Source: Aquificaceae bacterium
GTDB taxonomy: Bacteria; Aquificota; Aquificia; Aquificales; Aquificaceae
Direction: 5' to 3'
DNA: 61,361 bases
Assembly (NCBI GenBank): GCA_037924335.1
Contig: JAXSMZ010000006.1
Span: 1 to 61,361 of the forward strand
Positions 44,765 to 61,361 of the stretch are shown here, in pieces. How positions within the stretch are numbered: position 1 is the stretch's first letter; every line of letters starts with the position of its first letter. Below the pieces are notes generated by a model that ran no database searches, was not told the origin of the DNA, and saw only the letters and a list, made by a program, of their open reading frames with translations. A program made the translations under genes and the position numbers.

Positions 44765-44988
44765 GACTTTTCCTCAAAGCATGCGTACCCCTTTTCATAA
44801 TCTTGGCTCTTTTCCACGCACTCCCTTATTCTGTCCAGCTTATGGAGGATGAACTTTTTGCATGCAGGCCATGTCCATCCATGGTTGCACAGAAGCTTAG
44901 CATCTTCTAATGGGTTTGTCTTGCAAGCCCTCTCCTGAGCGTAGGATGAGAGGGTAAAGCTGAAAAGGATAGCAAAAAGCACTATCAT
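44737..44988 (-). CDS. Small secreted Cys-containing hypothetical protein
   Basis: Signal peptide MIVLFAILFSFTLSSYA, 5 Cys; overlaps nuoF and udg. Confidence 0.6.
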   Translation of the reverse strand: MIVLFAILFSFTLSSYAQERACKTNPLEDAKLLCNHGWTWPACKKFILHKLDRIRECVEKSQDYEKGYACFEEKSWIEKLLLQ

Positions 44989-46262
44989 ATGATAGTGGAC
45001 AGTACCTTTCTGTACCTTTCCCACTCTTGGGGAAACTTTTTCATAGTCTGCCTTATGAGCCTTCCAGCGACAGCACCGAGTCCGCAGATGGATGTAGGTT
45101 GTATAAACCTGTTTACAAAGTCAAAGGCTTCCCAGTCTTTTTCTGTAGCTTTGCCCTCTACTATCTTTTTAAGGAGCTCCTTCTGTTCGTAAGTTCCTAC
45201 TCTGCATGGTGTACATTGTCCACAGCTCTCATGGGAGTAAAACTCTGCAACCTTCAGACACATCCTGACTATATCATCCTCCTCCGTTAACACTATGACG
45301 GTTCCAGTCCCGCCGAATCCAAGGGGTGAGTAGTCCATGGGTGTGTCAAGCTCGTCGGCAGAAAAGCAGTCAAGGGCTCCAGAGAAAACAGCCTTCACCC
45401 TTTGTTTGTTTGATGTTCCCCCCGCATACTTGAAAACTACCTCTCTCAAAGTTGTGTTCATAGGAAGCTCGTAAACGCCTGGCTTTTTTACCTTTCCACT
45501 CACCGGGAAGAGCTTGGGACCAGGATAGTCGCTTGGACCTATGTATCTGTAGTTTTCCCATCCGAGGCCCACTATGAAAGGTATGTTACAAAGTGTTTCT
45601 ACGTTGTTGACTACAGTAGGCCTTCCAAAAAGCCCGTACTGGACTGGGAAGGGTGGCTTTGTTCTTGGGAAGCCCCTCTTGCCTTCCAAGGATTCTATGA
45701 GAGCACTCTCCTCACCGCATATGTAGGCGCCTGCTCCCCTTGCAACGTAAACCTCAAGGTCAAACCCACTTCCCATTATGTTTTTACCAAGAAAACCTTT
45801 CTTCTTGGTCTCTTCTATGGCATCTCTGAGTATGTAGTAAGCTGCCGCATACTCCCCCCTTATGTATATGAAAGCTTCGTTGACACCCAAGGCATATGCG
45901 GATATTGCAATGCCTTCAAGTAGAAGATGAGGGTCTCTTTCTAAGATTATCCTGTCTTTGAAAGTTCCAGGTTCTGACTCGTCTGCGTTGCATATTAGAT
46001 ACCTCGGTTGGGGGTTTTGCAGTGCAAACTTCCACTTTTTACCGGTCGGGAAGCCAGCTCCACCACGGCCTCTTAACTCGCTTTTCTCCACCCAATCCAC
46101 TATCTCCCCCGGTTCCATATTGAGAGACTTCTCTAAGGCTTGATAGCCACCATCTTTGAGGTAGTCTTCCAGAAAATGAACCCTTCCCTTTTTGGCTCTT
46201 CTCAGGAGCATATCGAGGGATGTCTCCGTGTATATTTTAGGCATAACGGGATAGGACTTCAT
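44985..46262 (-). CDS. nuoF: NADH-quinone oxidoreductase subunit F
   Basis: GRGGAGFPTG, NADESEPG, YICGEE, CGQCTPC...C. Confidence 0.95.
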   Translation of the reverse strand: MKSYPVMPKIYTETSLDMLLRRAKKGRVHFLEDYLKDGGYQALEKSLNMEPGEIVDWVEKSELRGRGGAGFPTGKKWKFALQNPQPRYLICNADESEPGTFKDRIILERDPHLLLEGIAISAYALGVNEAFIYIRGEYAAAYYILRDAIEETKKKGFLGKNIMGSGFDLEVYVARGAGAYICGEESALIESLEGKRGFPRTKPPFPVQYGLFGRPTVVNNVETLCNIPFIVGLGWENYRYIGPSDYPGPKLFPVSGKVKKPGVYELPMNTTLREVVFKYAGGTSNKQRVKAVFSGALDCFSADELDTPMDYSPLGFGGTGTVIVLTEEDDIVRMCLKVAEFYSHESCGQCTPCRVGTYEQKELLKKIVEGKATEKDWEAFDFVNRFIQPTSICGLGAVAGRLIRQTMKKFPQEWERYRKVLSTII

Positions 46263-46701
46263 TTAACTTCTCCTTGCTTTCAAATCTGTAAGAGTCTTGG
46301 TCTATCATAAAAAAGGGGGCTTCTGAGCATGCACCGAGACATTGAACTGGTATGAGCTTAAACCTTCCATCCTTTGTAACCTGATAAAAATCTATTCCCA
46401 ATAGTTCCTTTAAAGCCTTCAAAAGTTTATCCTTGTCCATAAGATCACAGACAATGCTCATGCATACATAGACCCTGTGTTTGGCTACTTGCCCTCTGTC
46501 AAACATATCGTAAAAGGAAACCACATTCTCCACATGGTTTAGGGGTACGTCCAATATCCTTGCAATACCTTCAAGGGCAAAGTCTGGTATATACCCATAG
46601 TGCTTTTGAACTTCATGAAGGCAGAGAAGAAGGGCTTGTTCCTTTTTGGGAAAGTAATTGGCATGCTCTTCTAACTTCTTCTGGAGATCAACGTCAAACA
46701 T
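46237..46701 (-). CDS. nuoE: NADH-quinone oxidoreductase subunit E
   Basis: CMSIVC...CLGAC 2Fe-2S motif. Confidence 0.93.
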   Translation of the reverse strand: MFDVDLQKKLEEHANYFPKKEQALLLCLHEVQKHYGYIPDFALEGIARILDVPLNHVENVVSFYDMFDRGQVAKHRVYVCMSIVCDLMDKDKLLKALKELLGIDFYQVTKDGRFKLIPVQCLGACSEAPFFMIDQDSYRFESKEKLNEVLSRYA

Positions 46702-46708
46702 AGTTATA

Positions 46709-47974
46709 TTATATCCTCTTTGCTCCAAGGTCATAACCGCCTATTTGCGTTATTTTCACCTTTATCCACTGACCTGGCTTTAAGCTCTCCTCGCTCTCTA
46801 TGTAAGTAATGCCATCAACCTCTGGCGCCTGAAAGTAAACCCTCCCTGCTGGAACATACTGCACCTCCTCATCATACCCATCCACTACAAGGTCTAACTC
46901 TCTTCCTAAAAACTCCTGGTTCTTCCTCTTTGTCTCTTCCTCTTGAAGAGCCAAAACCTCTTGTCTTCTCCTTTCCTTCTCTTCCTCTGGCAGTCTATCT
47001 TTCAGTTGGTAAGCATAAGTATCCTCCTCATGAGAGTAAGAGAAAACACCAACCCAATGAAAATGTCCCTCAGAGATGAACTCTTTTAAGGTCTTAAAAT
47101 CTTCCTCGCCTTCTTCTGGATAACCAACTATTAGGGTGGTTCTGAGCACAGCGTTGGGAATGTGTTCCCTTATGTTTTTTATAAGCTTCCTAACAAACTT
47201 CCCATCGTATCCTCTTCTCATGTTTCTCAGAACTCTATCCGATATATGCTGTATAGGTATGTCAAAGTAAGGAAGCGTTTTTTCTGAGTTTCCTATGTGC
47301 TTTATTAGTCTTTCTTCTATTTCTGTTGGGTAGAGATAGAGAAGTCTTATCCATTTTATACCTTCTACCTTTTCCAGCCTTTCTATAAGCTCTATTATCT
47401 TATTTTCCCCGTAAAGGTCCCTTCCGTAGTAGGTGGTATCTTGGGAGACTATGCATATCTCGGAGATGCCTTGGTCTGCTATGTACCTTGCTTCTTCCAA
47501 TAGTTCCTCCATGGGTCTAGACCTGTGTCTCCCCCTTATCTTGGGAATGGCGCAGAAAGAGCAGAGCCTGTTGCAACCTTCCGCTATCTTCAGGTAAGCG
47601 TAAGACTTGGGAGTGGTTATCAGCCTTTTACTCTCTCCTATGAACTTTAGCCCAAGGAAATCAACCACCTGGTTCCAGCTTTCCGTACCAAAATAGGCAG
47701 TAACTTCTGGGATTTCCTTTTGAAGCTCTTCCTTGTACCTCTGGACTAAACATCCCATGACTATTACCTTCTTCCCCTTTGCATGCTCCAGTATTGTGTT
47801 TATGGACTCTTCTTTGGCTGGATTTATAAAACCGCAGGTGTTTATAATGATGATATCAGCCTTATGTAAGTCTTTTACAAACTTCACGTTGTTTGCTTTT
47901 AACTTTCCTAAGAGTACTTCAGTGTCCACAAGGTTTTTTGAACATCCAAGGCTTATTACACCTACTTTCATCAC
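46709..47974 (-). CDS. rimO: Ribosomal protein S12 methylthiotransferase
   Basis: LGCSKNLVD, NTCGFI, CNRLCSFC, QAPEVDG. Confidence 0.95.
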   Translation of the reverse strand: MMKVGVISLGCSKNLVDTEVLLGKLKANNVKFVKDLHKADIIIINTCGFINPAKEESINTILEHAKGKKVIVMGCLVQRYKEELQKEIPEVTAYFGTESWNQVVDFLGLKFIGESKRLITTPKSYAYLKIAEGCNRLCSFCAIPKIRGRHRSRPMEELLEEARYIADQGISEICIVSQDTTYYGRDLYGENKIIELIERLEKVEGIKWIRLLYLYPTEIEERLIKHIGNSEKTLPYFDIPIQHISDRVLRNMRRGYDGKFVRKLIKNIREHIPNAVLRTTLIVGYPEEGEEDFKTLKEFISEGHFHWVGVFSYSHEEDTYAYQLKDRLPEEEKERRRQEVLALQEEETKRKNQEFLGRELDLVVDGYDEEVQYVPAGRVYFQAPEVDGITYIESEESLKPGQWIKVKITQIGGYDLGAKRI

Positions 47975-48885
47975 TCTTCCACATCAAGCTCGTTAAATAC
48001 TCGGTACACGTTGGCATTGTGAAATTGCTGGTACATAACATCTTTCTTATAAGGATTCTCAGACATCCTTTCCTTTATATCGTCTACAAAAAGACCTTCC
48101 TCCTTTAGTTTCTTTATCTCATTCCTTAAAAAGTTTATGTATTCCAAGGTGTAGTCTATGGCTTCTTTGTTCATGGGCTCGTTGTGTCCTCCCAGCAATA
48201 GCTTTAGGTCCATGGTTCTTAGCTTCTCCAAAGCATCAAGCCAACCCTTTGAGCTTGCGTTCCTATCTCCCATGAAAGGTATCCTTTTATAATAGACCAG
48301 ATCCCCTACAAAGATTACCTTCTCCTCTGGCATGTAGACTACAATATCTGAATTTGTGTGAGCCGGAGTCATGCCTATTATCTCAAACCTCTTGCCACCC
48401 ACATGCAGAGTTATCTTATCCTTTACTTTCACATCTGGTGGTAGAAGCTCTACGTCCTTGTAAAGGCTACCTGTAGTTTCCTTCATCGCCTGCAGAGCCT
48501 GAAGAGCCTCACCAGATATGTAGAACTGGTACAAGCCCTCATGGGCTATAACCTTTGCCCCTGAACTCTTGAAGGTCTTTACACCGTACCAATGGTCCGG
48601 GTGGTAGTGGGTGATTATGACGTATTTGATGGATGCCCTTTTCACCCTCATAAGGTTCTCTACAAACTCCTTAGAAAGCTCGGGAGTTGAAAGGGTGTCA
48701 ATGACAACCCATCCTTCTTTTGTTAACACTGCAAAGGCATTGGACATAAAGCCTCTGTTCTCCAAGGTAGGTATCTGGTCCCTTCCTCTGACCATGTATA
48801 TGTCTCTTTCTACCTTGCGTAGTTTTAAATCTTCAGCCTTCACTGAGTAAAAAAGGAAAAGGATAAAAAACACTATCCATCCCAT
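47971..48885 (-). CDS. Periplasmic MBL-fold protein (paralog of 34369-35340)
   Basis: NRGFMSNA, THYHPDH, AHT, GDLV. Confidence 0.8.
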   Translation of the reverse strand: MGWIVFFILFLFYSVKAEDLKLRKVERDIYMVRGRDQIPTLENRGFMSNAFAVLTKEGWVVIDTLSTPELSKEFVENLMRVKRASIKYVIITHYHPDHWYGVKTFKSSGAKVIAHEGLYQFYISGEALQALQAMKETTGSLYKDVELLPPDVKVKDKITLHVGGKRFEIIGMTPAHTNSDIVVYMPEEKVIFVGDLVYYKRIPFMGDRNASSKGWLDALEKLRTMDLKLLLGGHNEPMNKEAIDYTLEYINFLRNEIKKLKEEGLFVDDIKERMSENPYKKDVMYQQFHNANVYRVFNELDVEE

Positions 48886-48887
48886 AT

Positions 48888-49640
48888 TTACACTCTCTCC
48901 TTCTTAATCCAGTCTTCAAATTTAAAACCCATCCTTATGCTGTCAACCATCTCCTTCTCTAATGGGGTTAGGTCCTTAGGGATCATGTCTGGTCTGTACC
49001 TGATGGTCCTCTCTATGGAATGCCAGAGCTTCCAAAGCTCTATAAGTCTGTGATTTCCAGAGAGTAAAACATCTGGAACTTTTAATCCGCCAAATTCCTC
49101 AGGTCTTGTATAGACAGGGTAGCCAAGCCATCTGCCAAAGGAGTCTGCTCTTAGGCTCTCTGGCTCACCTATGGCACCGGGAAGAAGCCTGGTTATACCA
49201 TCTACAAGGACAAGGGCAAGAAGCTCTCCGCCGGAGATCACAAAGTCTCCCAAAGATAGCTCCTCATCTGCAAGAATAGAAACCCTCTCATCTATCCCCT
49301 CGTACCTCCCGCATATTATGAGAATTTTCTCTTTTTCCTTAAGCTTCTGGAAAGTCCACTGGTCTATCCTTTTGCCCCATGGTTGGGGAATTATGGTATA
49401 GGGCTTTTCATATTCTTTTACAACATGTTCATAAGCTTTGAATATGGGCTCTGGTTTTAAAACCATTCCAGGAAGCCCTCCGTAAGCCTCATCGTCTACT
49501 CTACCTTTGTGTGCGTAATCCCTAAGGTCTATTGGTAGGACATCTATCAGCCCCTTCCTTCTTGCCTGTTTGACAATTCCATAGTTGCAGTACTCTTCTA
49601 CGATTTTTGGAAAAACTGTCAGTATAAAAAATTGCATCAC
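48888..49640 (-). CDS. trmD: tRNA (guanine-N1)-methyltransferase
   Basis: VDD..YGG..GM, CGRYEGIDER, SLGDFVISGGE, YTRP. Confidence 0.96.
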   Translation of the reverse strand: MMQFFILTVFPKIVEEYCNYGIVKQARRKGLIDVLPIDLRDYAHKGRVDDEAYGGLPGMVLKPEPIFKAYEHVVKEYEKPYTIIPQPWGKRIDQWTFQKLKEKEKILIICGRYEGIDERVSILADEELSLGDFVISGGELLALVLVDGITRLLPGAIGEPESLRADSFGRWLGYPVYTRPEEFGGLKVPDVLLSGNHRLIELWKLWHSIERTIRYRPDMIPKDLTPLEKEMVDSIRMGFKFEDWIKKERV

Positions 49641-50500
49641 CTCAGAAACTTCTCCACAAGCTCGTAAGCTCTGTTTTGGGAGAATTTATAGTATATGTCT
49701 ATGGTGGTTTTTACGTTGGAGTGTCCAGCAAACTCTTTGACCACCTCCGCAGGAAAGTTGTTGTTTACAAGGTTTGTTATGTAGGTGTGTCTAAAGCTAT
49801 GTATGGAAAAGGGTATACGGAGCTTATGAGACAGCCTATTAGTAAAGACCTGAAGGGACCCTCTATTTACCGAAAAGTTCTCTTCATAATTTTCTATCCA
49901 ATGGAGAAGTTTTTCTGTAATGTCGAAGGTTTCTTCTTTTGTACTTCCCAGGATAGGCACAAGCCTCTCTTTTCTTCTTTTAGTAATTTCTGGTGGAAGC
50001 CTTATCCATAAGAGTTTACTCTTGTCCTGATAGAATTTATCCTTAGTGAGTCCCATGTACTCGGAAAGCCTTATCCCGCTTGACAAGAACAGTATATAAA
50101 CTTTCTCATACTTTGTGTTTGCCACAAAAGTGAGTATCTTCCTGACATCCTCTTTCGAAAGAGCTTTTGGGTATCTAACATGGCTTGGTCCAAGCTCTTC
50201 CCTTATATCATATATGGCAGATTCCACTTCAGAGTATAGGTCTTTCCCTATGTACCCTCTCCTTAGCATAAACTTGTAAAAGTGCTTTATCGCAGATAGG
50301 TGCGTAAGGAGGGAAGATGTATTCAAGGAAGATGAGTAAACATAGCTGTATATTTCCTTAGGGTCCGGTGTTATGATGTTGCTGTCTCCAGCGTGTTTTA
50401 TGAAGGATTGTAAACTCCTTATATAGGTGATGACAGTTCTTGCGCTTTTTGTTCTTTCAAGACCCTTCTTCCAGAGTTCCAGAAGCTCTATCTGCCCCAT
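49637..50500 (-). CDS. Xer-like tyrosine recombinase (intact)
   Basis: Catalytic set present: SGIR, TK, HSFR, GH, TT..Y; N-terminal SAM-like domain. Confidence 0.9.
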   Translation of the reverse strand: MGQIELLELWKKGLERTKSARTVITYIRSLQSFIKHAGDSNIITPDPKEIYSYVYSSSLNTSSLLTHLSAIKHFYKFMLRRGYIGKDLYSEVESAIYDIREELGPSHVRYPKALSKEDVRKILTFVANTKYEKVYILFLSSGIRLSEYMGLTKDKFYQDKSKLLWIRLPPEITKRRKERLVPILGSTKEETFDITEKLLHWIENYEENFSVNRGSLQVFTNRLSHKLRIPFSIHSFRHTYITNLVNNNFPAEVVKEFAGHSNVKTTIDIYYKFSQNRAYELVEKFLR

Positions 50501-50509
50501 ATCTAAATT

Positions 50510-50610
50510 CTAATCCCTTTGCCCCCTTAGCTCAATCTATCTTTAGCTTTTCTATATGCATATCTTTTGTTAACAGCTCTTTCTTGCCTTGTCCAAGATA
50601 TAATCTTCTA
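50510..50610 (-). pseudogene. Frameshifted 3' remnant of a paralog of the 59693 coiled-coil gene
   Basis: Reads KII/LDK/ELLTKDMHIEKLKI/ELRGQRD* against RIMLDKDREILNKEMELSTLRMELEKKRKKE*; the stop codons align. Confidence 0.6.
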
Positions 50611-50734
50611 TAAAGTAAGAGGTAAAACCATAGAGAGTCGCAAGGATCAGAGACTATAACAATAAGCTGGTAAAAAGAGGAAGAATGTTCGTTTATCCAT
50701 CTGGTATAGAACAGTGTATTTTGTCAAGGTCCTC

Positions 50735-50765
50735 AACTTTTAGAACTTTATAAAAAATTTATAGG
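50735..50765 (+). repeat. 31-bp promoter repeat, copy 1
   Basis: AACTTTTAGAACTTTATAAAAAATTTATAGG, identical to 56275-56305. Confidence 0.9.
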
Positions 50766-50785
50766 AGCTGACTAAACTTGTAGGT

Positions 50786-52009
50786 ATGAACGCCGTCGAG
50801 GTAAACATGTTTCTGATTATATGGCTTGCAATCGTGAGCATTTGCTATGCGGAGGAGAGGGTAAACCTAAAGCAGGCTATACAGATTATAAAGGAGAAGA
50901 ACTACGATGTAAAAATATCAAAACTTGAAATAAAAAAAGCAGAAGGGTCATTCATACAAGCTGGTCTTTTACAAAACCCAAACGTGTATTTAAATTACAC
51001 AGGTCTGGATTTTGGTAAAAATATCCTTTATGATACGAGCAATACACTACTTTCTATAGGTGTAAGTCAACCGATAGAGCTCGGTGGAAAGAGAAAATAC
51101 AGAAAACTTTCTGCAAAGTATGCGTTGGAATCAACAAAATACCAATGGAAGGACTCCACACGGTCAGTAATAAGAGACTTCGTGTCCTTGTACTTCCAAA
51201 GCTTGGCAGATAGAGCCTATGTAGACTACTTAGAACAAGATCTAAAGGATTTCGACCAAATGCTTTTAATTCAATCCAAAAGGCAGGAGCTAGGATTTTT
51301 GAGCCTTATTGACCTACTAAAGCTAAAGCTATACAAGGGAGAACTTGAGGACGCCATAAGAGTAGCAAGAGGAACATATCAAAAGGACTTGCAGGATATG
51401 TCCTTTTACTTGGGTGGTGTATATGAACCTGAGGAAGTTCAGGAGAATATGTCCGAGGCCAATATCAATGAGTTATTAGAACTTTCTCTTAAGAACCGAG
51501 AAAACATAAAAGCGATAGAAAAACAAATAGACTCTATAAACTATCAGATAAAACTTTTGAAAAGTTATACCATACCAGATATAACTGTAAATGTTGAATA
51601 CGATGCCTTTGGAGTTCAATACAAGCCTGGTTTGGGGTTCGGTTTTTCTATAAACCTTCCTGTGTTTGACAGAAGACAAGGTGACCTTCTTACCGCTGTA
51701 GCCACAAAAGAACAACTTAGGGTGTCCCTTGATAGGGCTATAGCATCGGTAAAGACAGAGGTATTAAAAGCCTATGAAGACTACGAGACAAATCTAAGGA
51801 TCTACAAGGCTATGCTTGAAAGGAAGAAGGTAATGGACGATATATTAGAAAGAACAAAAAAGGCTTATTCTATGGGTGGCATATCAACCTTAGATTTCTT
51901 AGATACCTTAAGAACATACCGCTCCTTTATGCAGTCCTTTATTCAAGCTAAATACAATACCTTAAAAAGTCTTCACTATTTACTAATCACATCAGGGAGT
52001 GAGCTATGA
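50786..52009 (+). CDS. TolC/CzcC-family outer-membrane efflux protein
   Basis: NP...SQPIELGGKR, LPVFDRRQG; alternative start at 50807. Confidence 0.9.
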   Translation: MNAVEVNMFLIIWLAIVSICYAEERVNLKQAIQIIKEKNYDVKISKLEIKKAEGSFIQAGLLQNPNVYLNYTGLDFGKNILYDTSNTLLSIGVSQPIELGGKRKYRKLSAKYALESTKYQWKDSTRSVIRDFVSLYFQSLADRAYVDYLEQDLKDFDQMLLIQSKRQELGFLSLIDLLKLKLYKGELEDAIRVARGTYQKDLQDMSFYLGGVYEPEEVQENMSEANINELLELSLKNRENIKAIEKQIDSINYQIKLLKSYTIPDITVNVEYDAFGVQYKPGLGFGFSINLPVFDRRQGDLLTAVATKEQLRVSLDRAIASVKTEVLKAYEDYETNLRIYKAMLERKKVMDDILERTKKAYSMGGISTLDFLDTLRTYRSFMQSFIQAKYNTLKSLHYLLITSGSEL

Positions 52010-53034
52010 AAAGGATAGTCCTATTGCTTTTAGCATTAGCACTTGTACAATCCTGTCATACTTCCCACGAAGAAAAGGAACAAAAGCAGGCCATTCAGAA
52101 CCCGAAAACGGTTGAGGTTAAATATGAGGAGATACCCTCTGTTATCGAGGCTACTGGTTCTGTGGAGCCAGACAAGGATGGCATAGTAAGAATAAGTCCT
52201 AGAGCTCAAGGTGTAATCCAAAGTATAAATGTAAATGTGGGAGATAGGGTAAGTGTAGGTGAAGTTTTGGCAGTTGTGAAGGCACCAGATATTACGGATA
52301 TATACGCACAAAAGGTATCCATAGCCGCTCAGATTGCCAATGCGGAAAAGTTATACAAACTCAAGCAAGAACTCTACAATATAGGAGCCATACCTAAGAG
52401 CGAAGTTATGGATGCAGAGACCAACTACAAGGTACTAAAAGCACAACTGCAGGGCTTGGAGGAGAAGTTAAGACTCTTGGGTGGTAAAGGTGGTATTTCA
52501 GAGGTTAGGTCTCCTGTAAGCGGGATAGTCTATCAGATAAAAGCCCATATAGGCGACAGTGTGGACACATCCACAGAGATTCTAAACATAGCAAGACCGT
52601 CAAGGGTTCTTGTATCTGCTTTAGTTCAGGATAAAGATGCCAGCAAAATAAAGGTAGGAGATAGTGTGGAGTTTTCCATAAGCACTTTTCCAGACAAGAA
52701 ATACACTGGTAAGGTTAAATATGTAAGCGATGTGGTAGACCCAGAAACAAGGACAGTAAAGGTTTACATAGTCCCCGACAATGTAGAAGACTTTAGGATA
52801 AACATGTTTTTTAACATAAGGATATACACGGGCAAGGCTAAATATGCAGTAATACCAGAGAGTGCAATCTTATACAAGGACGGAAGGTTTTATGTGTATG
52901 TTTTAGAAAATAACAAACCAATCTTAAAAGAAGTGAGTTTCATAAAGGAGCTCGAAGGTAAACGCGTTGCAGTTATCGGTTTAGAAGAAGGTCAAAAGGT
53001 GATTACCACTCCCATGCTTGAGGAAAAGCCATGA
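52006..53034 (+). CDS. RND periplasmic adaptor (CzcB/CusB-like), lipoprotein
   Basis: LVQSC lipobox, biotinyl-like motifs, VDPETRT. Confidence 0.9.
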   Translation: MKRIVLLLLALALVQSCHTSHEEKEQKQAIQNPKTVEVKYEEIPSVIEATGSVEPDKDGIVRISPRAQGVIQSINVNVGDRVSVGEVLAVVKAPDITDIYAQKVSIAAQIANAEKLYKLKQELYNIGAIPKSEVMDAETNYKVLKAQLQGLEEKLRLLGGKGGISEVRSPVSGIVYQIKAHIGDSVDTSTEILNIARPSRVLVSALVQDKDASKIKVGDSVEFSISTFPDKKYTGKVKYVSDVVDPETRTVKVYIVPDNVEDFRINMFFNIRIYTGKAKYAVIPESAILYKDGRFYVYVLENNKPILKEVSFIKELEGKRVAVIGLEEGQKVITTPMLEEKP

Positions 53035-56000
53035 AAAGGTGGATAAACTTTGTATTGGACAACTCTATTCTTTTCATACTTGCGAGCATAATGGTGGGAT
53101 TGGTTTCTCTTATATTTATAAAAAATCTCAATATAGAAGCCTTTCCAGACCCATCCCCACCCATAATAGAGATAGTTAGCATATATCCCGGGAGGTCTGC
53201 AGAGGAGGTAGAAAGACAGATAACCACACCTCTTGAGACTACCCTTGCAGGTATGAGAGGTTTAGAAAGGATCAATTCCATATCCCTATATGGCTTGTCT
53301 GATATAAAGTGTAAGTTTTCTTATAATGTAACCTACCGTGAAGCGAGACAGGAGGTTATAAACAGACTTTCAACTGTTAATCTTCCTGATGGAGTATCAC
53401 CGCAGATAATACCTAACCCGTTGGGTGAGGTAATGCGTTATGTGGTCGTTGGAGACAAGAACCTAATGGACCTTCGCACCTTACAGGATTGGGTTATAGC
53501 CAGATATCTAAAGACTGCAGAAGGTGTAGAAGACGTGGCAAGCTATGGCGGATTCATAAAGGCTTATATGGTGGAAATTCATCCAGAGGATTTGGTAAAG
53601 TACAAGATATCGCTTTCAGACATAGTTAACGCCCTCTCAAGGTCAAACGTAAACACAGGAGGTAGACCAATAGATTTCGGCTCTCAATATCTACTAATAC
53701 GCGGTGTAGGTCTTATAAAGAACTTAAAAGATATAGAAAATACGGTTGTAGCCTATAGAAAGAACACACCTATACTTATTAAGGATATAGCTACAGTTAA
53801 GCTAGGCAACATTCCTAGGACAGGGATAGTTGGTCTAAACAAACAGGATGACGTAGTTATGGGTGTTGTGATCCTGCGTAGAGATGCCCAAAGCATTCCC
53901 TCCATAAGGTCTATAAACCAAAAAATTCAGGATCTAAACTCCCATATACTACCAGAGGGTGTTAAGGTGGTGCCCTTCTACGAAAGGGGCAGACTTATTG
54001 ATACTGTTGTGCACAAGGTTAGTGAAATAGCGATAATAGGAATACTTCTGGTGGCTTTTTCCATACTTGTATTCATAGGAAACTTTTTAGTAGCCATAAT
54101 TTTAGCTTCTATTGTGCCTCTATCTTTGATCATTGCTCTTGGCGTTTTAGCCATATCTGGAAAATCCGCTAACTTCCTGTCAATAGCTGCCATAGACTTT
54201 GGTATAATAGCAGACATTCCCATTCTTTTTCTGGAAAACTATTTCAGGCTCCTAAAAGATGAAGAACCCAGCAGGAGAACTCTTATCCAATCTGCGCAAG
54301 AAGTAGGAAGACCGCTAATCCTTTCCATACTCCTTATCGCTATAGCCTTTATACCCGTCTTCCTTATGGAAGGCGCAGAGAAAAGGATCTTCTCACCCAT
54401 GGTAGAAACTTATCTTTATGCCATATCCGCATCGGTTATACTAACCTTCACTCTTTTGATAGCCCTTTTGGGTTTTATAAAAAAACCTTCGCACAAGGAC
54501 ACTCTTTTGGTGAGATTCTTTGAGAACTTGTACCTACGCTTTATTGATTTGATTGTATCTATTAAGGGTAAAACACTTTTTATTATACTTTCCATCATTA
54601 CAGTTATAACCTTGTTGTTAATTAAAAGTTTAGGCCTTGAGTTTATACCAAAGATGGATGAGGGAAATATTTACATGCGTATAATATTCCCATACTCCAT
54701 ATCATTAAAACAAACTTATGAAAATGCAAAAAGGGTAAGAGATGCTGTTTTAGAATTTCCTGAGGTAAAAACCGTGGAATTTCAGGTTGGTAGGCCAGAA
54801 GATGGAACAGACCCTACGGGTCCCTTTAATTCAGAATACTTCATTGACCTAAAACCCTATTCTGAGTGGAAATCCTTCAAAACAAAGGAGGAGCTCGAAG
54901 AGGCTCTGAGGAACAAAATAAAAAGTCTATTCCCAAAAGCGGATATAAATCTTTCCCAATATATAGAAGACAATCTCGAAGAGGTTACAACTGGTGTAAA
55001 GGGAGAGAATGCAGTAAAAATATTTGGTGATGACCTTGAAAAGCTGGACGAACTTGCAAGAGAGGTGGTAGAAAGACTTAAAAAAGTAAAAGGCATAGAA
55101 GATGTGGGTATTTTCAGAGAGATAGGACAACCAAACTTGGTGATAAGGGCTGATAGAAGTCGCCTGTCTGCCTATGGGCTTACAGTTCAAGACCTTATGG
55201 ATGTTATATCCACAAGTCTCGGAGATAAGGAAGCTACTCAGGTAATAGAGGGTGAAAAGAGATTTTCTCTCATTGTTTCTTTCCCAGATAAATACAGAGA
55301 GGACCCATCGAAGATAGCAAGCATACCCATTGTATTACCCGATGGTAGTTTCATACCGCTTTCTGCAGTGGCGGACATATCCTTTGGGACTGGAGCATCC
55401 TTTATATACAGAGAACAATACAAAAGATACATACCTATAAAGTTTAGCATTACATCAAAGGACATGGCAGGCACTGTTTTAAAAGCTCAGGATGCGGTAA
55501 AGGACATAAAATTGCCAGAAGGATACTACACGGATTGGGCTGGACAGTTCAAGAGCTTAGTAGAAGCCCTTAGGAGGTTTACTCTATCTGGAAGTCTTGC
55601 AATTCTGTCTCTCTTAGTCTTTCTTTATATTATTACAAAATCTGTTAGAAACACTCTCATAGCAGGTTCAGGATTACTTTTTGCACTCTTTGGTGGTTCA
55701 ATAAGCCTATTTATAACTGGTCATCCTATGAGCCTTTCTGCCATAGTAGGCTTTGTTTCCATACTTGGCATATCAATACTTAACATACTGCTCTTGATGA
55801 GAAGCTATGCTTACCATTATAGAAATGGAATGGAGAAGATAGATGCCATTAAAAAGTCTGCGGTGGAAAAGCTCAGGGCTGTATTGATGAGCACTTTCAC
55901 CGCATCTCTTGGGCTACTACCTACCGCACTTTCCAAAGGAGTAGGAAGCCAAATACAGAAGCCTCTTGCCATAGTTGTCGTGGGTGGTATGCTCATATCT

Positions 56001-56063
56001 GGAATGCTTATAGTTATCTTTATACCCCCACTTTTGAGGTATATGCGTGTGGAAGAGTCTTAG
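53031..56063 (+). CDS. CusA/CzcA-family RND permease
   Basis: IEAFPD, EVERQIT.PLE, AIDFGII.D, QKPLAIVVVGG. Confidence 0.92.
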   Translation: MKRWINFVLDNSILFILASIMVGLVSLIFIKNLNIEAFPDPSPPIIEIVSIYPGRSAEEVERQITTPLETTLAGMRGLERINSISLYGLSDIKCKFSYNVTYREARQEVINRLSTVNLPDGVSPQIIPNPLGEVMRYVVVGDKNLMDLRTLQDWVIARYLKTAEGVEDVASYGGFIKAYMVEIHPEDLVKYKISLSDIVNALSRSNVNTGGRPIDFGSQYLLIRGVGLIKNLKDIENTVVAYRKNTPILIKDIATVKLGNIPRTGIVGLNKQDDVVMGVVILRRDAQSIPSIRSINQKIQDLNSHILPEGVKVVPFYERGRLIDTVVHKVSEIAIIGILLVAFSILVFIGNFLVAIILASIVPLSLIIALGVLAISGKSANFLSIAAIDFGIIADIPILFLENYFRLLKDEEPSRRTLIQSAQEVGRPLILSILLIAIAFIPVFLMEGAEKRIFSPMVETYLYAISASVILTFTLLIALLGFIKKPSHKDTLLVRFFENLYLRFIDLIVSIKGKTLFIILSIITVITLLLIKSLGLEFIPKMDEGNIYMRIIFPYSISLKQTYENAKRVRDAVLEFPEVKTVEFQVGRPEDGTDPTGPFNSEYFIDLKPYSEWKSFKTKEELEEALRNKIKSLFPKADINLSQYIEDNLEEVTTGVKGENAVKIFGDDLEKLDELAREVVERLKKVKGIEDVGIFREIGQPNLVIRADRSRLSAYGLTVQDLMDVISTSLGDKEATQVIEGEKRFSLIVSFPDKYREDPSKIASIPIVLPDGSFIPLSAVADISFGTGASFIYREQYKRYIPIKFSITSKDMAGTVLKAQDAVKDIKLPEGYYTDWAGQFKSLVEALRRFTLSGSLAILSLLVFLYIITKSVRNTLIAGSGLLFALFGGSISLFITGHPMSLSAIVGFVSILGISILNILLLMRSYAYHYRNGMEKIDAIKKSAVEKLRAVLMSTFTASLGLLPTALSKGVGSQIQKPLAIVVVGGMLISGMLIVIFIPPLLRYMRVEES

Positions 56064-56283
56064 TCTTTTAACAAGTACCCTATTGGTCTTTACATTAACC
56101 TTTGAAGACGAATACATTCCAAAGAATATGTCCACAGACTTTAAGCTGAGTTATGGTCTTGACAAGTCTACAGAGATAAACTTTGGTGTAAGAACCTATG
56201 ACGACCTTGAGTATATGCTAAACAGGAGAAAAAATAATAACTACTTAGATAAGTTTGTAATATGGCTAACCATAAACTTTTAG
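56047..56283 (+). CDS. Small hypothetical exported protein ending in WLTINF
   Basis: Hydrophobic N-terminus; overlaps the RND stop; amphipathic beta-strand pattern. Confidence 0.5.
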   Translation: MWKSLSLLTSTLLVFTLTFEDEYIPKNMSTDFKLSYGLDKSTEINFGVRTYDDLEYMLNRRKNNNYLDKFVIWLTINF

Positions 56284-56305
56284 AACTTTATAAAAAATTT
56301 ATAGG
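56275..56305 (+). repeat. 31-bp promoter repeat, copy 2
   Basis: Identical to 50735-50765, with the same distance to the next ATG. Confidence 0.9.
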
Positions 56306-56325
56306 GGGCAACTACATTTGTATTT

Positions 56326-56766
56326 ATGGAGGCTGTTGAGGTAAATGCACCTTACCTCTTTGAAAGGTTAAAGGAGCTTGAGTTAAAAACATGGAAGGGC
56401 CTTAGCGAAATAAAGAGCATAGAGATCCTCAAGAATAAAAAGGCATACATATTCTATGAGAATAATGAAGAAGCTGGATATCTTATATTCCGCATGCGCA
56501 GAAAAGGAGAAGTTTACATAGAAGACCTTGTGGTAAGTAATCCAGAGTATTTTATAGGTGTGATGCTTAGAATTGTAAAACTCCTTTCTCCAAATACGCT
56601 CGTAGCCTTGGTAGAACCACATTTTGAATGGCTGTTTTCAGAAAATTTTAGAAAGATAATTAAAAGAGTAGGATACACAACAATAGTAAAAAGACAATTT
56701 TATATAAACGGAGACATAATGACTTATATAAGGCTTATCCATGAAGGTAATATTGGTAGAAGATGA
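56326..56766 (+). CDS. Hypothetical protein, weakly GNAT-like
   Basis: AGYLIF...VYIEDLVV strand pattern; no clear acetyl-CoA motif A. Confidence 0.5.
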   Translation: MEAVEVNAPYLFERLKELELKTWKGLSEIKSIEILKNKKAYIFYENNEEAGYLIFRMRRKGEVYIEDLVVSNPEYFIGVMLRIVKLLSPNTLVALVEPHFEWLFSENFRKIIKRVGYTTIVKRQFYINGDIMTYIRLIHEGNIGRR

Positions 56767-57412
56767 AATTGATATGGCTATATCAGTAAGTAAGTTCTTG
56801 GGTAAACTGGGCTGGCAAGTGTCAATAGCAAGAGGTATTTATGACGCCATACAGCTTATTGAAAATGAAGTTTTTGATGTCTGCCTTTTAGACTTGCTTT
56901 TAAGCGATGGTTATGGTGAAGAATTGTTGAAATATCTAAACGCCGAAAAAATACCAGTTATTATGCTTACGGTCATAGAGGATGTAGGACAAAAGGTAAG
57001 GTGTTTAAAATCGGGAGCGGACGATTACATCACAAAGCCTTTCAGCCCAGAAGAGCTCGTGGCAAGAATTGAGGCGGTATTAAGAAGATATAAGCAATCT
57101 GGAAACGATAATACACTAATTTACAAAGATATTCAGATAGACATTTTTAGCATGAGTGCAAGAATAAAAAATACCTATATTCAAATGCCAAGAAAACAGC
57201 TCATGCTACTTATAAAACTTGTAGAACATGCGGAAAAAGTTGTTACATATAACACATTAATGTCCTATTCATGGGGAGTTTATGAAGATGCATGCATGGA
57301 GTCCCTGAGAACCCATGTGTATAAATTAAGAAAATTGCTTAAATTTTATAATTATGATATAATAAGCTATCCTGGTATAGGCTATATGTTAAAATACATT
57401 GATGAACCTTAA
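56741..57412 (+). CDS. OmpR-family response regulator
   Basis: LVEDE, LLD, GADDYITKPF, GIGY winged helix. Confidence 0.93.
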   Translation: MKVILVEDEIDMAISVSKFLGKLGWQVSIARGIYDAIQLIENEVFDVCLLDLLLSDGYGEELLKYLNAEKIPVIMLTVIEDVGQKVRCLKSGADDYITKPFSPEELVARIEAVLRRYKQSGNDNTLIYKDIQIDIFSMSARIKNTYIQMPRKQLMLLIKLVEHAEKVVTYNTLMSYSWGVYEDACMESLRTHVYKLRKLLKFYNYDIISYPGIGYMLKYIDEP

Positions 57413-58529
57413 TCTTTACAGACTATACATAGTAGGCTTTTTCAAGTTCTTTATCCCAATAAGTGTATTCTTTACTCTTACATTTGTCAGCTTTAGAAGT
57501 TATCTTACAGAACTTGAATCAGAACATCTGCTAGGCGTTAGCAAACAGATGGTTTCTCTGCTTGAGGAGGATGAAAATATAAACGACAATCAGTATATAA
57601 CCAGTGATTATGTGATACTTCTTCTGGATAACCACAACAGAATAATAAGTTTGAATAGAAGCACTCCAGGATTAGACAAATTGTTAAGATATGTTGATGT
57701 TGAGAATAGGGTTCTAAATACGGACGACTACCTCATTTACGCGGAGAGATTTCGTTGTGGAACAAAATCGTGTAAATTAGTGGTTGCAATGCCAAAGGTG
57801 CGTATAAACAAAAAAATAAATTTACTTTTACTATCTTCACTCCTTTCCGCTTTTGTAGTTAGCGTGCTTATTACTGCCATGGCTGTTCTTGATGCCAGAA
57901 GGTATGTTCAAGAGCATAAAAGCTATGTTCAAAGATTGCGTGAAGTAGCAGTTTATCTATCTCATGAAATAAAGACGCCTCTGGGAGTGATTCTGACAAA
58001 CCTCTACAATATAAATATAGAAGAGGATATAAGAAAATCCATTGAACGTTCAATAAGGCGAATTATAAAGCTGATGAGAAATCTTAAGATACTATCCGAA
58101 ATGGATTTAGAAAGTGAAAACCAAATATACATAAACATTATGGTACTTATAAGGGATATAGTTGAATTCTATAAAGGTGGTCTATATAACAAAAATATAA
58201 TTCTAATGCTTGACGATATAAAAAATGTGGAAATCCTATCAGATTATGAGCTTATTTTTACTCTTTTTTTGAACCTCATAGATAATGCGGTAAAATACTC
58301 AGAAGATTGTTCAGAAGTTGTTATAAAAGGTGAAATAAAAGAAGGTAAAGTTGTGGTTAATATAACTAACAGTGTGGCTAAAATAGGATGGAAACAATAC
58401 AAGGAATCATCTTACGGCATAGGCTTAATGATAGTTGAAAGAATTGCGTCTATTCTAGGAGTAAATGTAATTATGAAAAGGGATGAAGACAAGTCCATAG
58501 CCACGGTAGAATTATGTTGTCCATATTAG
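57399..58529 (+). CDS. Sensor histidine kinase
   Basis: 2 TM helices, SHEIKTPL H-box, NLIDNAVKYS N-box, GIGL G2 box; G1 box degenerate. Confidence 0.88.
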   Translation: MMNLNLYRLYIVGFFKFFIPISVFFTLTFVSFRSYLTELESEHLLGVSKQMVSLLEEDENINDNQYITSDYVILLLDNHNRIISLNRSTPGLDKLLRYVDVENRVLNTDDYLIYAERFRCGTKSCKLVVAMPKVRINKKINLLLLSSLLSAFVVSVLITAMAVLDARRYVQEHKSYVQRLREVAVYLSHEIKTPLGVILTNLYNINIEEDIRKSIERSIRRIIKLMRNLKILSEMDLESENQIYINIMVLIRDIVEFYKGGLYNKNIILMLDDIKNVEILSDYELIFTLFLNLIDNAVKYSEDCSEVVIKGEIKEGKVVVNITNSVAKIGWKQYKESSYGIGLMIVERIASILGVNVIMKRDEDKSIATVELCCPY

Positions 58530-59581
58530 TTTACATTTTAATTGAGTTTTTTGACACCATATATGCCTCGTATATCGTCTATTTAAAAATGCCAGCAGAA
58601 AGCTATACAATATTTAAAGCAAACGAATACGGATATATTTTTACCTTGGCAAATCTGCTAGGGCTTGTAGTTCTTTGGCTAAGTTTTTATAAGAAACTTC
58701 TCATATCCTATAGAACATACATTATTATGCTTGTATTGCTATCTTCAATGCTTGTTTTTATAAATAAAGGAATTTATTCAATTATAATCATGTTTTGCTT
58801 CGTTGTTTTTCATACAATCTTTACATTTTACTACGAAATAATGGCTTTAAAATTTGAGAAGTTTGAAACAGTAATAGGGCTTTCTTACTCTGCTGGCTTT
58901 ATTGCTCTTGGTTTGTTGTTATTGTTTTCTGAATTAAACTTGCTGTTGGTAGCATTCATCTATTCCTTTTTCCTTATACTTGTTATGAAACTTATAAAAA
59001 TAGATAGAGATATAAAAATCAAGCCCTTAATAATAAAAGAGCTGTTTGATCCCAAATTCTTGGCAGAAGTCTTGGTTATGTATTTACTTGGAGAGTATGT
59101 GGAGGTTCTAACATCTATGGGGTATTATATACTTAGGGACATATCATATAATAGTGCTGAAGTTGAAAAGGCTATTGGAATAGCCCTAATAAGTGCTTTT
59201 GGCATCGCATTGCTCTCAGGATATCTGTTAGACCTTTTGAGTCTGAGGCTTTACGGTCTACTTACAACACTGATTTTGTTTTCTATTCCTTTGCTATTGT
59301 TCGTACAAGCTATAGTGGAGATAATTGCAGTTTTTGTGGGTGTATCTATAGCTTTCTACTGGGTATACTTTAGAACATACCTATACCATAGGTATCTTAA
59401 AGAAGAATATGTCTATAGGTTTCTTTTGTTCTACCTATCCTCCAACTTGGGTGGGGTTCTGCTATATGCGCTCCTTTTTGAAGTTTTTAAGGAACATAAG
59501 ATAAGCCTTTTTATACTCTCGCTTTTTTTAGTGCCAGTACTTCTGATCCAACTGAAACAAAAAGGGCAGAAGGTAAGTTAA
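58514..59581 (+). CDS. MFS-like membrane transporter
   Basis: About 11-12 TM helices in two halves. Confidence 0.55.
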   Translation: MLSILVYILIEFFDTIYASYIVYLKMPAESYTIFKANEYGYIFTLANLLGLVVLWLSFYKKLLISYRTYIIMLVLLSSMLVFINKGIYSIIIMFCFVVFHTIFTFYYEIMALKFEKFETVIGLSYSAGFIALGLLLLFSELNLLLVAFIYSFFLILVMKLIKIDRDIKIKPLIIKELFDPKFLAEVLVMYLLGEYVEVLTSMGYYILRDISYNSAEVEKAIGIALISAFGIALLSGYLLDLLSLRLYGLLTTLILFSIPLLLFVQAIVEIIAVFVGVSIAFYWVYFRTYLYHRYLKEEYVYRFLLFYLSSNLGGVLLYALLFEVFKEHKISLFILSLFLVPVLLIQLKQKGQKVS

Positions 59582-59603
59582 CATAATTGCTATTATGTTA
59601 ACA
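59576..59603. other. dif-like Xer recombination site (11-6-11)
   Basis: AGTTAACATAA-TTGCTA-TTATGTTAACA; perfect 10-bp inverted arms; the right arm shares TTATGTTAA with the E. coli dif XerD arm. Confidence 0.8.
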
Positions 59604-59635
59604 ATCGTAAGCCCTTATCCTATTCCTGACACATG

Positions 59636-59664
59636 TTGACATTTGACATCAAAAGATATAAAAT
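59636..59664 (+). promoter_or_regulatory. Sigma70 promoter of the coiled-coil gene
   Basis: TTGACA, 17 nt, TAAAAT; AGGAGG SD before ATG 59693. Confidence 0.65.
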
Positions 59665-59692
59665 ACTGTCATATAAATGAAAGGAGGGCATC

Positions 59693-60325
59693 ATGAAAGA
59701 TGGCAAGGACGTTGTCAAAATAAAAGCGTCAGAATATGCACTTTTAACAGACCTTTCGCTGAACACGGTAAAGAACCGTATAAGGGCTGGTGTTTTGAGG
59801 GGTGGTAAGGAAGAAGACGGCATATGGTATGTTTACCTCACGCAGGAAGAATTAGAGCACATAAGGGGCTTCAAAGAAGCCCAGGAGGAAAAGAACAAAA
59901 GCCTTCAGTCTAACATTGAGGGGCTAAAGTCAAGCCTTGAAGGAAGTCTTATAGCCACCTATATGTCCGCCCTCATGCAAAAGGAGCAACAAAAGGAACA
60001 GCTCCTTCATGAGCTATCAAGCCTTTATACGCTCCTTGCCATAAGGGAGAAGGAGATGGAGTTTCTCACAAAGGAACTGGGAAGTGTCAAAGAAAGATCT
60101 ATGGAAAAGGAAGCTGATAACCAAAAGTTAAAGGAGATAATCCAAGAGAAGGACAACGCGATGAAAAGACTTCAAGAGGAACTTAGGGAAAAGGATCATC
60201 TTCTCAACCAGAAAGAGTTGGAGCTTCAAAGGATTATGTTGGATAAGGACAGAGAAATACTAAACAAAGAGATGGAGCTGTCTACTCTTCGCATGGAACT
60301 GGAGAAGAAGAGGAAGAAGGAATAA
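59693..60325 (+). CDS. Winged-HTH (excisionase/MerR-like) plus long coiled-coil protein
   Basis: ASEYALLTDLSLNTVKNRIRAGVL...GIWYV followed by about 150 aa of heptad-rich E/K/L sequence and a basic tail. Confidence 0.75.
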   Translation: MKDGKDVVKIKASEYALLTDLSLNTVKNRIRAGVLRGGKEEDGIWYVYLTQEELEHIRGFKEAQEEKNKSLQSNIEGLKSSLEGSLIATYMSALMQKEQQKEQLLHELSSLYTLLAIREKEMEFLTKELGSVKERSMEKEADNQKLKEIIQEKDNAMKRLQEELREKDHLLNQKELELQRIMLDKDREILNKEMELSTLRMELEKKRKKE

Positions 60326-60332
60326 AATTATT

Positions 60333-60690
60333 AAAAGCCTTAGCAGGACAAAGAGTCAGAGGACTATAACTCCCTACAGTATGTGTCTTGCGTCCCTTCA
60401 GAGGTATTTAGGTGAGGGCAAACCTTCTTGAAATTGAACCCAGAAAGGCTGTTTTCTTACGTTGACTCCTCTGATCTTTCTACCTCCTCTCTCCTTACTC
60501 ATCTTTCTGCCATAAAGCACTTTACAAGTTTACCTTTAGAAGGGGTTGGCTAAGCGAGGAACATTACTCGGAACTGGAGGCGGTCTTGGAAGAGATAAGG
60601 GAGGACCTTTCTGGCTCAAAACCTCAGAGAAGTCCAAAGGCTCTCAGTAGGGAGGAGCTCGACAGGATTTTTCAGACGGTAAGGGATACT
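60333..60690 (+). pseudogene. Frameshifted N-terminal fragment of a paralog of the 49637-50500 recombinase
   Basis: KSLSRTKSQRT.../LFSYVDSSDLSTSSLLTHLSAIKHF/KFTFRRG...EIREDL...PKALSREE against KGLERTKSART...YSYVYSSSLNTSSLLTHLSAIKHFYKFMLRRG...DIREEL...PKALSKED. Confidence 0.85.
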
Positions 60691-60691
60691 T

Positions 60692-60880
60692 GTTCTCATC
60701 CCTTTTCTTAAACCAAAAGATAAAGTCTGGATAAAACCTTCTCAACTTTCCATCGTAATATGGGATGTATATATTGTCTAAACTCTCATCTATTTTTGAA
60801 AAATACTACCAGTCAAGATATTCAAAATCATGGTTATCTTCAAGGTATTCTTCAAGATGTTTTATAAAATCACTTTCACG
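60692..60880 (-). pseudogene. Fragment of a type III restriction endonuclease (Res) nuclease domain
   Basis: ESDFIKHLEEYL...DW*YFSKIDESLDNIYIPYYDGKLRRFYPDFIFWFKK, with an in-frame TAG at 60808-60806. Confidence 0.65.
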
Positions 60881-60888
60881 ATATAATA

Positions 60889-60928
60889 CCGCAGGAGGCT
60901 CTCCTTTTCAAAGGAGAGAGGAATGCGG
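60889..60928 (+). mobile_element. IS200/IS605 left-end hairpin
   Basis: CCGCA...CTCTCCTTT-TC-AAAGGAGAG...TGCGG nested inverted repeat just upstream of tnpB. Confidence 0.65.
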
Positions 60929-60966
60929 GACTTAACAAATATACATTTTTAGTCTATATTATTCTT

Positions 60967-61361
60967 ATGGTTCAGTTAACAGCAAGGGGGAAGCTAATTG
61001 TGGGTTAGGAACAAAAGAAGACATTGCTTGAGACTATTGAATTAGTTAATCAAGTCAGGAACTATCTTTCTGAGGTAGCTTTCAGAGAGAAGATAGCAAA
61101 CAAAGTGAAACTTCAAAAAATAAGCTATAGAGAAGTGCGGGAGAGGTTTTCTGTGCCAGCACAATATGTAGTTAGGGCAATAGCAAGTGTGTGTAATGCC
61201 TATAAGAGCAAGAAAAAAGACATAGACCACATGCAAGCATAGATTTAGACCAGAGGTTAGTATCTTTCAAGGGAATAGACAGAGTATCTATCAACACAGT
61301 CAGAGGGAGATTAACCATTCCAGTGGTTTGGGGTGAGTATTTCAGAGAAAGGGTAGCTTTC
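60967..61361 (+). pseudogene. tnpB: tnpB pseudogene, 5' part (runs off the window)
   Basis: MVQLTARGKLIVG*EQKK...RAIASV..AYKS, then a frameshift to RPHASIDLDQRLVSFK...INTVRGRL; in-frame TAG at 61006-61008. Confidence 0.75.

Follow-up and report, generated by a model that had tools for sequence, protein, structure and literature searches.

A dif-like site and an adjoining coiled-coil gene in the apparently FtsK-independent single-Xer system of Aquificaceae, and their xenologous replacement in one genome

The window analysed here, a stretch of 61,361 nucleotides from an Aquificaceae bacterium (assembly GCA_037924335.1, contig JAXSMZ010000006.1), is contig C6 of the genome labelled G000; other genomes carry G numbers, genera are labelled g and contigs C. 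It contains a dif-like site, the gene of a single Xer-type tyrosine recombinase, and a gene, cc, for a protein with a winged helix-turn-helix (wHTH) and a coiled coil. Across the family Aquificaceae (f1, to which all family counts refer), gene order indicates that the conserved unit is dif with cc and not cc with xer. We tentatively favour, short of real confidence, the reading that this is an FtsK-independent single-Xer/dif system in which a RacA/Par-like protein may be bound beside dif, tethering or organising the site. In G000 the unit appears twice, inverted, and the double copy is an instructive horizontal swap between genera rather than a new mechanism. The initial annotation had placed the intact xer, the intact cc, an xer remnant and the dif-like site correctly.

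The recombinase (49637..50500, minus strand, 287 aa; Pfam Phage_integrase and SAM_1) has a SAM-like N-domain and the R-K-H-R-H-Y catalytic set (R144, K174, H234, R237, H260 and Y270, invariant in 28 aligned homologues), and it is the only intact tyrosine recombinase in G000, a genome rated 99.9% complete. Its NCBIfam scores are 74.7 bits for XerA (a cut-off of 220 that it does not reach), 85.5 for XerC (335) and 81.6 for XerD (330); the XerS model scores it at 35 bits, and the best sequence match in the PDB to its profile is 4a8e of Pyrococcus abyssi (E 4e-13). Orthologues (E<1e-50) are present in 83 of 89 other genomes of the family, usually joined to trmD, and Xer evidently belongs to the conserved core rather than to a mobile element. 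In the window the start of the adjoining gene (48888..49640, minus strand), which we take from its sequence motifs to be trmD, overlaps the xer stop codon, and the junction is identical in G010, G029, G030, G074, G083 and further genomes.

The dif-like site (59576..59603), a near-perfect 11-6-11 palindrome, is the sole intact dif of G000 in pattern and profile scans and has no other match there at up to 2 mismatches; the second-best profile score in G000 (17.6, four mismatches) lies at C19:18557-18584. Such a site was found in 70 of the 89 other family genomes, with a single match in 63, compared with 4/50 genomes of family f2 and 0/8 of the third family, and the reversed pattern used as a control had no match in the family. 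At least one sole match, that of G086, sits inside a coding gene and is probably due to chance. The sites comprise 42 distinct sequences of the 11-6-11 form with conserved arms, an invariant innermost TAA and 24 different spacers.

The initial annotation had called for a check for FtsK or other xer genes. The Xer proved to be the only one, and the FtsK-family hit in G000 is a fusion of a PLD nuclease with HerA; no FtsK is present. The FtsK-gamma domain was found in none of the 148 genomes of the order, as against 8 of 14 in a control set. The PLD-HerA fusion (C12:35566-37443, L193) has matches of similar length in all five genomes searched. SMC is present in 5 of 5 genomes and ParB in one of 90 family genomes; HerA has been proposed as an analogue of FtsK in passages of PMC2958812. 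Family f2 has a separate Xer-like clade (L131-L146, about 25% identical), also without FtsK-gamma, and no conserved dif-like site or cc occurs within about 4 kb of its 16 xer loci; in most of these the upstream gene is presumably ubiX-like.

The initial annotation had joined cc and xer in a two-gene unit. The order dif-cc-xer is indeed conserved in relatives, but the linkage is more frequent between dif and cc: dif lies directly upstream of cc, at 81-108 bp, in 44 of the 50 cc-bearing genomes, whereas an intact xer lies directly downstream of cc in only 31. Five of the six genomes without an upstream dif have contig edges at this point, leaving G044 as the true exception. The site is still upstream of cc in 16 of the 19 genomes where no intact xer is adjacent, and in four single-contig chromosomes xer is 178-675 kb from dif-cc. 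All these counts come from related genomes and are not independent events. In its tree cc sorts mostly by genus, and so does Xer in its own. Relatives of cc comprise 67 proteins, those with taxon names being from Aquificaceae or Aquificota save one metagenome-assembled genome labelled Acidobacteria, and 36 GTDB loci; no convincing plasmid match was found, and DUF3972, an Atlas lead (score 0.92), was not confirmed as kin.

By its N-domain profile cc is absent from genera g2 (0/8), g3 (0/19) and g12 (0/2) and from G028-G030 of g1. At least 32 family genomes, all from these four genera, lack it, and nearly all of them keep Xer. An obligatory activator of this Xer clade is thus not what cc can be, as g2, g3, g12 and the three g1 genomes keep Xer without it; such a role is unlikely because genomes with neither cc nor its alternative described below keep both Xer and dif. 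Nor does cc behave as an excisionase or recombination directionality factor (RDF), which travels with its recombinase and is needed for direction: where xer moves, cc stays with dif. The palindrome is unlikely to be the operator of cc, since it persists where cc is absent or replaced.

Between dif and cc the motif TGAYA occurs a mean of 4.5 times (39 loci, range 1-7, only 1-2 in g5), compared with 0.34 beyond dif, on the side away from the gene, and 0.84 in shuffles, and one copy is the -35 hexamer of the cc promoter. In the window, four TGACA/TGTCA boxes (59627..59671, plus strand) overlap this promoter (TTGACA at 59636, TAAAAT to 59664) and are likely candidate binding sites of cc. A TGAYA cluster of such density is rare in G000, being found in 62 of about 153,000 overlapping windows, and in G044, a single case, the boxes stayed at dif after cc had moved. 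The distance from dif to the first box varies (about 16-34 bp, commonly 19-20 or 23-25), so that no fixed helical phase exists for the cc type. It is conceivable that dif doubles as an operator, Xer at dif and cc at the boxes setting transcription of cc, or of cc and xer, with cc acting as a transcription or nucleoid factor elsewhere. This would suit a -35 hexamer about 32 bp from dif, the common orientation of cc, xer and trmD where they adjoin, and a best fold match of cc to the transcription factor BldC, yet xer apparently has a promoter of its own at the cc stop codon, can lie hundreds of kilobases from dif-cc, and comparable box clusters are rare elsewhere in G000; we regard such regulatory coupling as quite improbable.

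The intact cc gene (59693..60325, plus strand, 210 aa) is single-copy in G000 by genome search. Its likeness in build to RacA, RocS and Par, noted earlier from sequence, is borne out by a structural model (pLDDT 88) with a beta-alpha-alpha-beta-beta winged HTH of MerR/Xis type at about residues 7-65, followed by long helices, of which one is continuous from 82 to 209; the only Pfam and PDB matches are of coiled-coil type. The N-domain modelled alone (pLDDT 85) matches the folds of BldC, RacA, MerR domains, Xis, Cox and RdfS with modest scores: BldC is best (prob 1.00, Z 5.7), RacA is second in Foldseek (prob 0.98, E 0.05), Xis has Z 4.8 and pSK1 Par Z 2.9, and all E-values are above 0.001. No sequence homology to RacA, RocS, RicO or Par was listed in searches of limited reach, and the Pfam scan of cc and of the alternative type gave no DUF536 match; neither RocS nor DUF536 was among the entries listed by fold and family searches, and kinship with them may nevertheless exist. 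Residues 84-121 (window 59942-60055) are strongly conserved within the helical region and are a candidate partner or oligomer interface.

This structure also bears on the possibility that cc is a recombination accessory factor, which bends or bridges DNA by dif as Xis or ArgR/PepA do, or touches Xer, and so sets direction or timing in place of FtsK. A system without FtsK, a wHTH resembling Xis, Cox and RdfS, boxes in cis beside dif and a box at a fixed distance from dif in g3 (below) are what such a factor would lead one to expect, and for Thermococcales Cortez et al. (passages of PMC2958812) suggest that partner sites flank dif. We nevertheless consider it unlikely: Xer is strongly conserved with or without cc, the first TGAYA box shows no helical phasing, two unrelated folds occupy the slot beside dif, one with a membrane-type tail, and the cc now paired with the native Xer of G000 is foreign, its identity to the native cc being 48%. 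Moreover, P. abyssi XerA recombines alone in vitro at an 11-6-11 site, as described in passages of PMC2958812.

The second fold is that of an unrelated ribbon-helix-helix (RHH) protein (Pfam RHH_1) with a short coiled coil, whose gene (RHH-cc) fills the dif slot in 14 of the 15 strong-match g3 genomes and in both g12 genomes, starting about 100-130 bp from dif. Where its end is readable, the protein has a basic-aromatic, membrane-type C-terminus of the KRRWFF type. The region between dif and this gene has its own motif, GTAWTAC, with a mean of 1.8 copies (16 loci) as against 0 on the far side and 0.04 in shuffles; all 14 g3 loci have a copy at +10 from dif, and 15 of 16 loci have one at +74-76. 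Neither TGAYA nor GTAWTAC occurs above background at the loci of the other class.

Relatives of the RHH-cc protein with KKWWEFWK-like tails are encoded on short contigs together with toxin-antitoxin-like genes, one contig of 4.5 kb having repeats at its ends; we infer that these contigs are plasmids, and a relative is on plasmid NC_001880.1. Of the nine plasmid-type RHH-cc genes in the family, six are preceded at 118-167 bp by a dif-like site (5 distinct sites in all), one has such a site 495 bp downstream and two have none. In the 1.53 Mb of G000 only 3 sites score as high; none of the three RHH-cc genes of family f2 has one nearby. In G028 and G030, broken plasmid-type RHH-cc genes abut the chromosomal dif. 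One apparently circular contig (L111, G007:C20, 4.5 kb) has a 727-aa open reading frame (ORF) without Pfam match, toxin-antitoxin-like ORFs, RHH-cc and a dif-like site, and large unannotated ORFs similar to that of L111 are present at L114 and L115. At L112 (G039:C148:1191-2209) a single perfect dif lies between two divergent RHH-cc genes.

Such cassettes on plasmid-like contigs, the plasmid relative and the decayed genes of G028 and G030 raise the further possibility that dif is an integration hot spot whose slot is filled by plasmid-derived stability or regulator genes, in which case cc would be an autoregulated gene with another job and its linkage to dif the product of history and short distance. 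Boxes that overlap the promoter and the ability of g2 to manage without either gene agree with this. On the other side, cc is single-copy, has a tree largely by genus, is under purifying selection and has no convincing plasmid match; in g3 the GTAWTAC box is exactly +10 from dif in all 14 loci, 65 bp from the promoter box; and the TGAYA boxes of G044, the one such case, remained at dif without cc. We judge a mere passenger at dif to be rather unlikely.

The tethering protein that we tentatively prefer would work as follows. Xer would bind both arms of the symmetric site and resolve dimers without FtsK, like archaeal XerA, while cc would oligomerise through its coiled coil, bind the TGAYA boxes and repress its own promoter. 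The resulting small centromere-like complex next to dif would hold or move the dif regions of sister chromosomes in the manner of RacA, RocS and pSK1 Par at their own sites. The RHH version could anchor to the membrane through its basic-aromatic tail, and cc, having no such tail, would need a partner. It is possible, if doubtful, that Aquificaceae more generally use dif as a chromosome handle, a swappable cassette of dif, boxes and a one-protein DNA-binding and coiled-coil tether that couples dimer resolution to segregation, exchanged between genera here and replaced by a plasmid-related, membrane-anchored RHH version in two genera.

Several observations weigh against a tethering role. Plain autoregulation explains the TGAYA boxes, since they overlap the cc promoter, and dif and cc, being only about 90 bp apart, would rarely be separated by rearrangement even without selection. 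In G044 cc has moved from dif, and the RHH gene has done so in G016. Neither chromosomal gene type was found in g2, where the best RHH-cc matches are on plasmid-like contigs, and G028 and G030 have broken RHH-cc remnants; the function is therefore dispensable there. The fold scores of the N-domain are modest, and Xis ranks above RacA and Par in the Z-score search. The C-terminus of cc has charged residues in 29 aligned sequences and no amphipathic helix. Finally, a position of dif at the replication terminus is without support: the distance between dif and dnaA is 0.4-45% of the genome in 11 single-contig chromosomes, so that dif is not opposite dnaA (our own arithmetic), and no replichore skew by codon position was detected in G033 or G072 (permutation p 0.12 and 0.89) with 20 windows of 20 kb per genome, about a quarter of each.

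In G000 the unit was replaced horizontally. The initial annotation had described a module present twice; there are two inverted copies, but they are evidently xenologues from different genera and not paralogues. Window positions 44001-50584 are 86-87% identical to G032 of genus g1, save for a 0.9-kb gap, and positions 50806-60689 are 83% identical to G047 of genus g7, with the same order of efflux island, dif, cc and xer. The window Xer is 91-92% identical to that of G032 and its sister in the tree (support 100/100), whereas the window cc is nested within g7 (support 99/97), with amino-acid identity of 90% to g7 and 48% to g1. These matches and trees rule out a recent duplication inside the genome. 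The donor, of g7 type, contributed about 10 kb, which is inverted relative to the 3' end of the native cc. A simple event in which Xer integrated a donor circle at the resident dif does not fit, as the surviving dif has donor DNA on both flanks. Gene conversion of the donor cc by the native one at 59756-59836 was rejected, as identity to g7 is equally high there.

What remains of the native cc is a 3' stub of 75 bp (50510..50584, minus strand), 88% identical over 77 nt to the cc 3' end of G032 (E 1e-22; 0 of 1000 shuffles reach the score). The remnant first marked at 50510-50610 is thus real but ends at 50584, and its match to the window's own cc is insignificant (51 of 1000 shuffles reach the score). 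Within the stub is a promoter-like TTGAGC-17-TAGAAT (50507..50535, minus strand; 9 of 12 positions, weak alone, with a -10 hexamer conserved in relatives) that is likely to drive xer-trmD. As had been noticed earlier, each copy has a TA(G/A)AAT hexamer that includes the cc stop codon, TAGAAT at 50512-50507 and TAAAAT at 60323-60328, and such hexamers recur in relatives where xer follows. Survival of exactly this stub can be ascribed to the promoter-like site and to the overlap of native xer with trmD, and the stub has probably been retained as the xer-trmD promoter.

The donor xer is reduced to a broken 5' part (60331..60689, plus strand; match to the intact Xer with E 1e-12), which has lost its start in a 33-bp deletion, carries three small indels and breaks off near codon 130. 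A decayed native dif with three arm substitutions was recognised by the dif profile at C13:34719-34746 (L197:2720-2747), directly after a DNA methylase gene of the G032 type; in G032 itself this methylase gene precedes dif-cc-xer-trmD. Beyond the decayed site are about 2.4 kb of small ORFs and an insertion sequence (IS) end. Contigs C13 and C6 each terminate in a fragment of one and the same IS, in orientations that are compatible, and are inferred to join; against this join, the end of C38 is likewise an IS right end, and no bridging contig was found among the public-run contigs.

Three parts have thus decayed reciprocally, since the native dif, most of the native cc and the donor xer are all degenerate, and the kept set is native Xer with foreign dif and foreign cc, a three-part xenologous swap particular to G000. 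Two symmetric dif sites per chromosome would be unstable, so that one would be lost, the survivor having boxes and cc. Exactly one intact copy of each gene survives, as first described, one tyrosine recombinase and one cc in the genome. The donor cc has dN/dS of 0.07-0.09 and no indel in 630 bp, compared with four indels in about 400 bp of donor xer; by our own arithmetic the chance of a clean cc at that indel rate is near 0.002. The low dN/dS was in large part already acquired in the lineage of the donor, as the xer remnant also shows 0.07-0.14. The earlier argument that reciprocal loss reflects selection for both functions accordingly holds in part: cc is intact while the adjacent xer is broken, but survival of Xer and of the stub is otherwise explained, and what the loss indicates is selection chiefly for cc and one dif, because the xer-trmD overlap and the stub promoter also account for the left copy.

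The double copy is not an assembly artefact: its left junction and its indels are found again in contigs of four public runs, which represent 2 studies and no more than 4 samples, each cover parts of the region, and may include the one that yielded the assembly. The stub is spanned as far as 50764 by three of these contigs, the fourth bridges 50590-50986, and two keep the xer-remnant indels unchanged; the decayed dif of C13 is unchanged in all four runs. One run has an extra 22-bp deletion in the xer remnant. The contig of another run diverges for about 950 nt after 60689, and the right junction (60689-60872) appears to be polymorphic in the population.

The acquired island proper (50806..59580, plus strand; 83% nucleotide identity over 8.8 kb to G047, where it is also ahead of dif-cc-xer) encodes, by Pfam, an outer-membrane efflux protein, an HlyD-type fusion protein, an RND pump, a small ORF, a GNAT-like protein, a response regulator, a histidine kinase and a membrane protein. 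The left junction (50585..50805) combines a stretch resembling C11:12306-12366 with a second copy (50735-50805, 83% identical) of the 71-bp segment 56275-56345, a segment before the GNAT-like gene that is reused ahead of the efflux operon; G047 has only the copy at 56275-56345. In G029 (L126, C1:5556-9000) xer is immediately preceded by an RND efflux block of 69% identity, and neither dif nor cc was found in that genome; efflux islands recur at this locus across genomes. To the right, the left part of an element that is presumably of the IS605/tnpB type (60873..61361, plus strand, 91% identical to a copy on C1) runs off the contig end. It includes a 32-bp hairpin-like sequence (60893-60924) with at least 8 further matches in G000, probably an IS end or a miniature derivative of one.

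What directs an Xer lacking FtsK towards resolution, and what times it to division, is presented as open for archaea in passages of PMC2958812 and PMC8371274. A bacterial example is available in Aquificaceae: the site is defined, there is one enzyme, and there are two candidate partners, alternative to each other, with candidate boxes, parts small enough for in vitro and plasmid tests. G000 adds a natural swap in which a foreign unit of dif, boxes and cc persists with the resident Xer while redundant parts decay. Should cc be only an autoregulated neighbour, there would remain an apparently undescribed single-Xer/dif system and a case of xenologous replacement. No account of Xer/dif in Aquificae was found in the literature, most subscription papers not being searchable; the string 'Aquif' does not occur in the main texts of PMC3025954, PMC5357621, PMC8371274 and PMC2958812, and the predicted dif sites listed in the supplements of PMC3025954 could include some from Aquificae.

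Among known systems, RocS, RicO, RacA and pSK1 Par combine a wHTH with a coiled coil and act in segregation, and RocS, RicO and Par end in an amphipathic helix, according to passages of PMC11500499 and bioRxiv 10.64898/2026.03.06.710092. The cc protein is like them in its N-terminal MerR-type wHTH, long coiled coil and clustered short repeats, and the RHH type in its basic-aromatic C-terminal tail and plasmid relatives; they differ in that the known proteins act on origins or plasmids in Firmicutes, whereas here the site adjoins dif, cc is without amphipathic helix or DUF536, and the alternative type uses an RHH domain. The XerA/dif systems of P. abyssi and Thermoplasma, as described in passages of PMC2958812, PMC5357621 and PMC8371274, likewise have one recombinase, an 11-6-11 site and HerA, and no FtsK, but in Aquificaceae the clade is bacterial, the arms are nearly perfectly symmetric, and a DNA-binding coiled-coil gene with its own boxes stands beside the site. 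XerS/difSL and XerH/difH share the single Xer, often genetically linked to its site (passages of PMC5357621 and PMC2958812); XerS needs FtsK and uses an atypical 31-bp site, whereas Aquificaceae lack FtsK, including the gamma-domain form on which XerCD-FtsK and XerS-FtsK depend, and have a third gene between site and recombinase. Like ZapT of Caulobacter (passages of PMC7188993) and MatP, cc may belong with DNA-binding proteins, MerR-family in the case of ZapT, that are linked to the terminus region and divisome, but the ZapT gene adjoins ihfA and its product binds across a broad region, whereas cc is encoded beside dif with local boxes. Small DNA-binding or activating partners of tyrosine recombinases also include Xis and other RDFs, ArgR-PepA at cer, and XafT of phage TLC. 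The fold of cc is Xis-like, but cc adds about 150 coiled-coil residues, follows the site and not the recombinase gene, and is dispensable in some genera.

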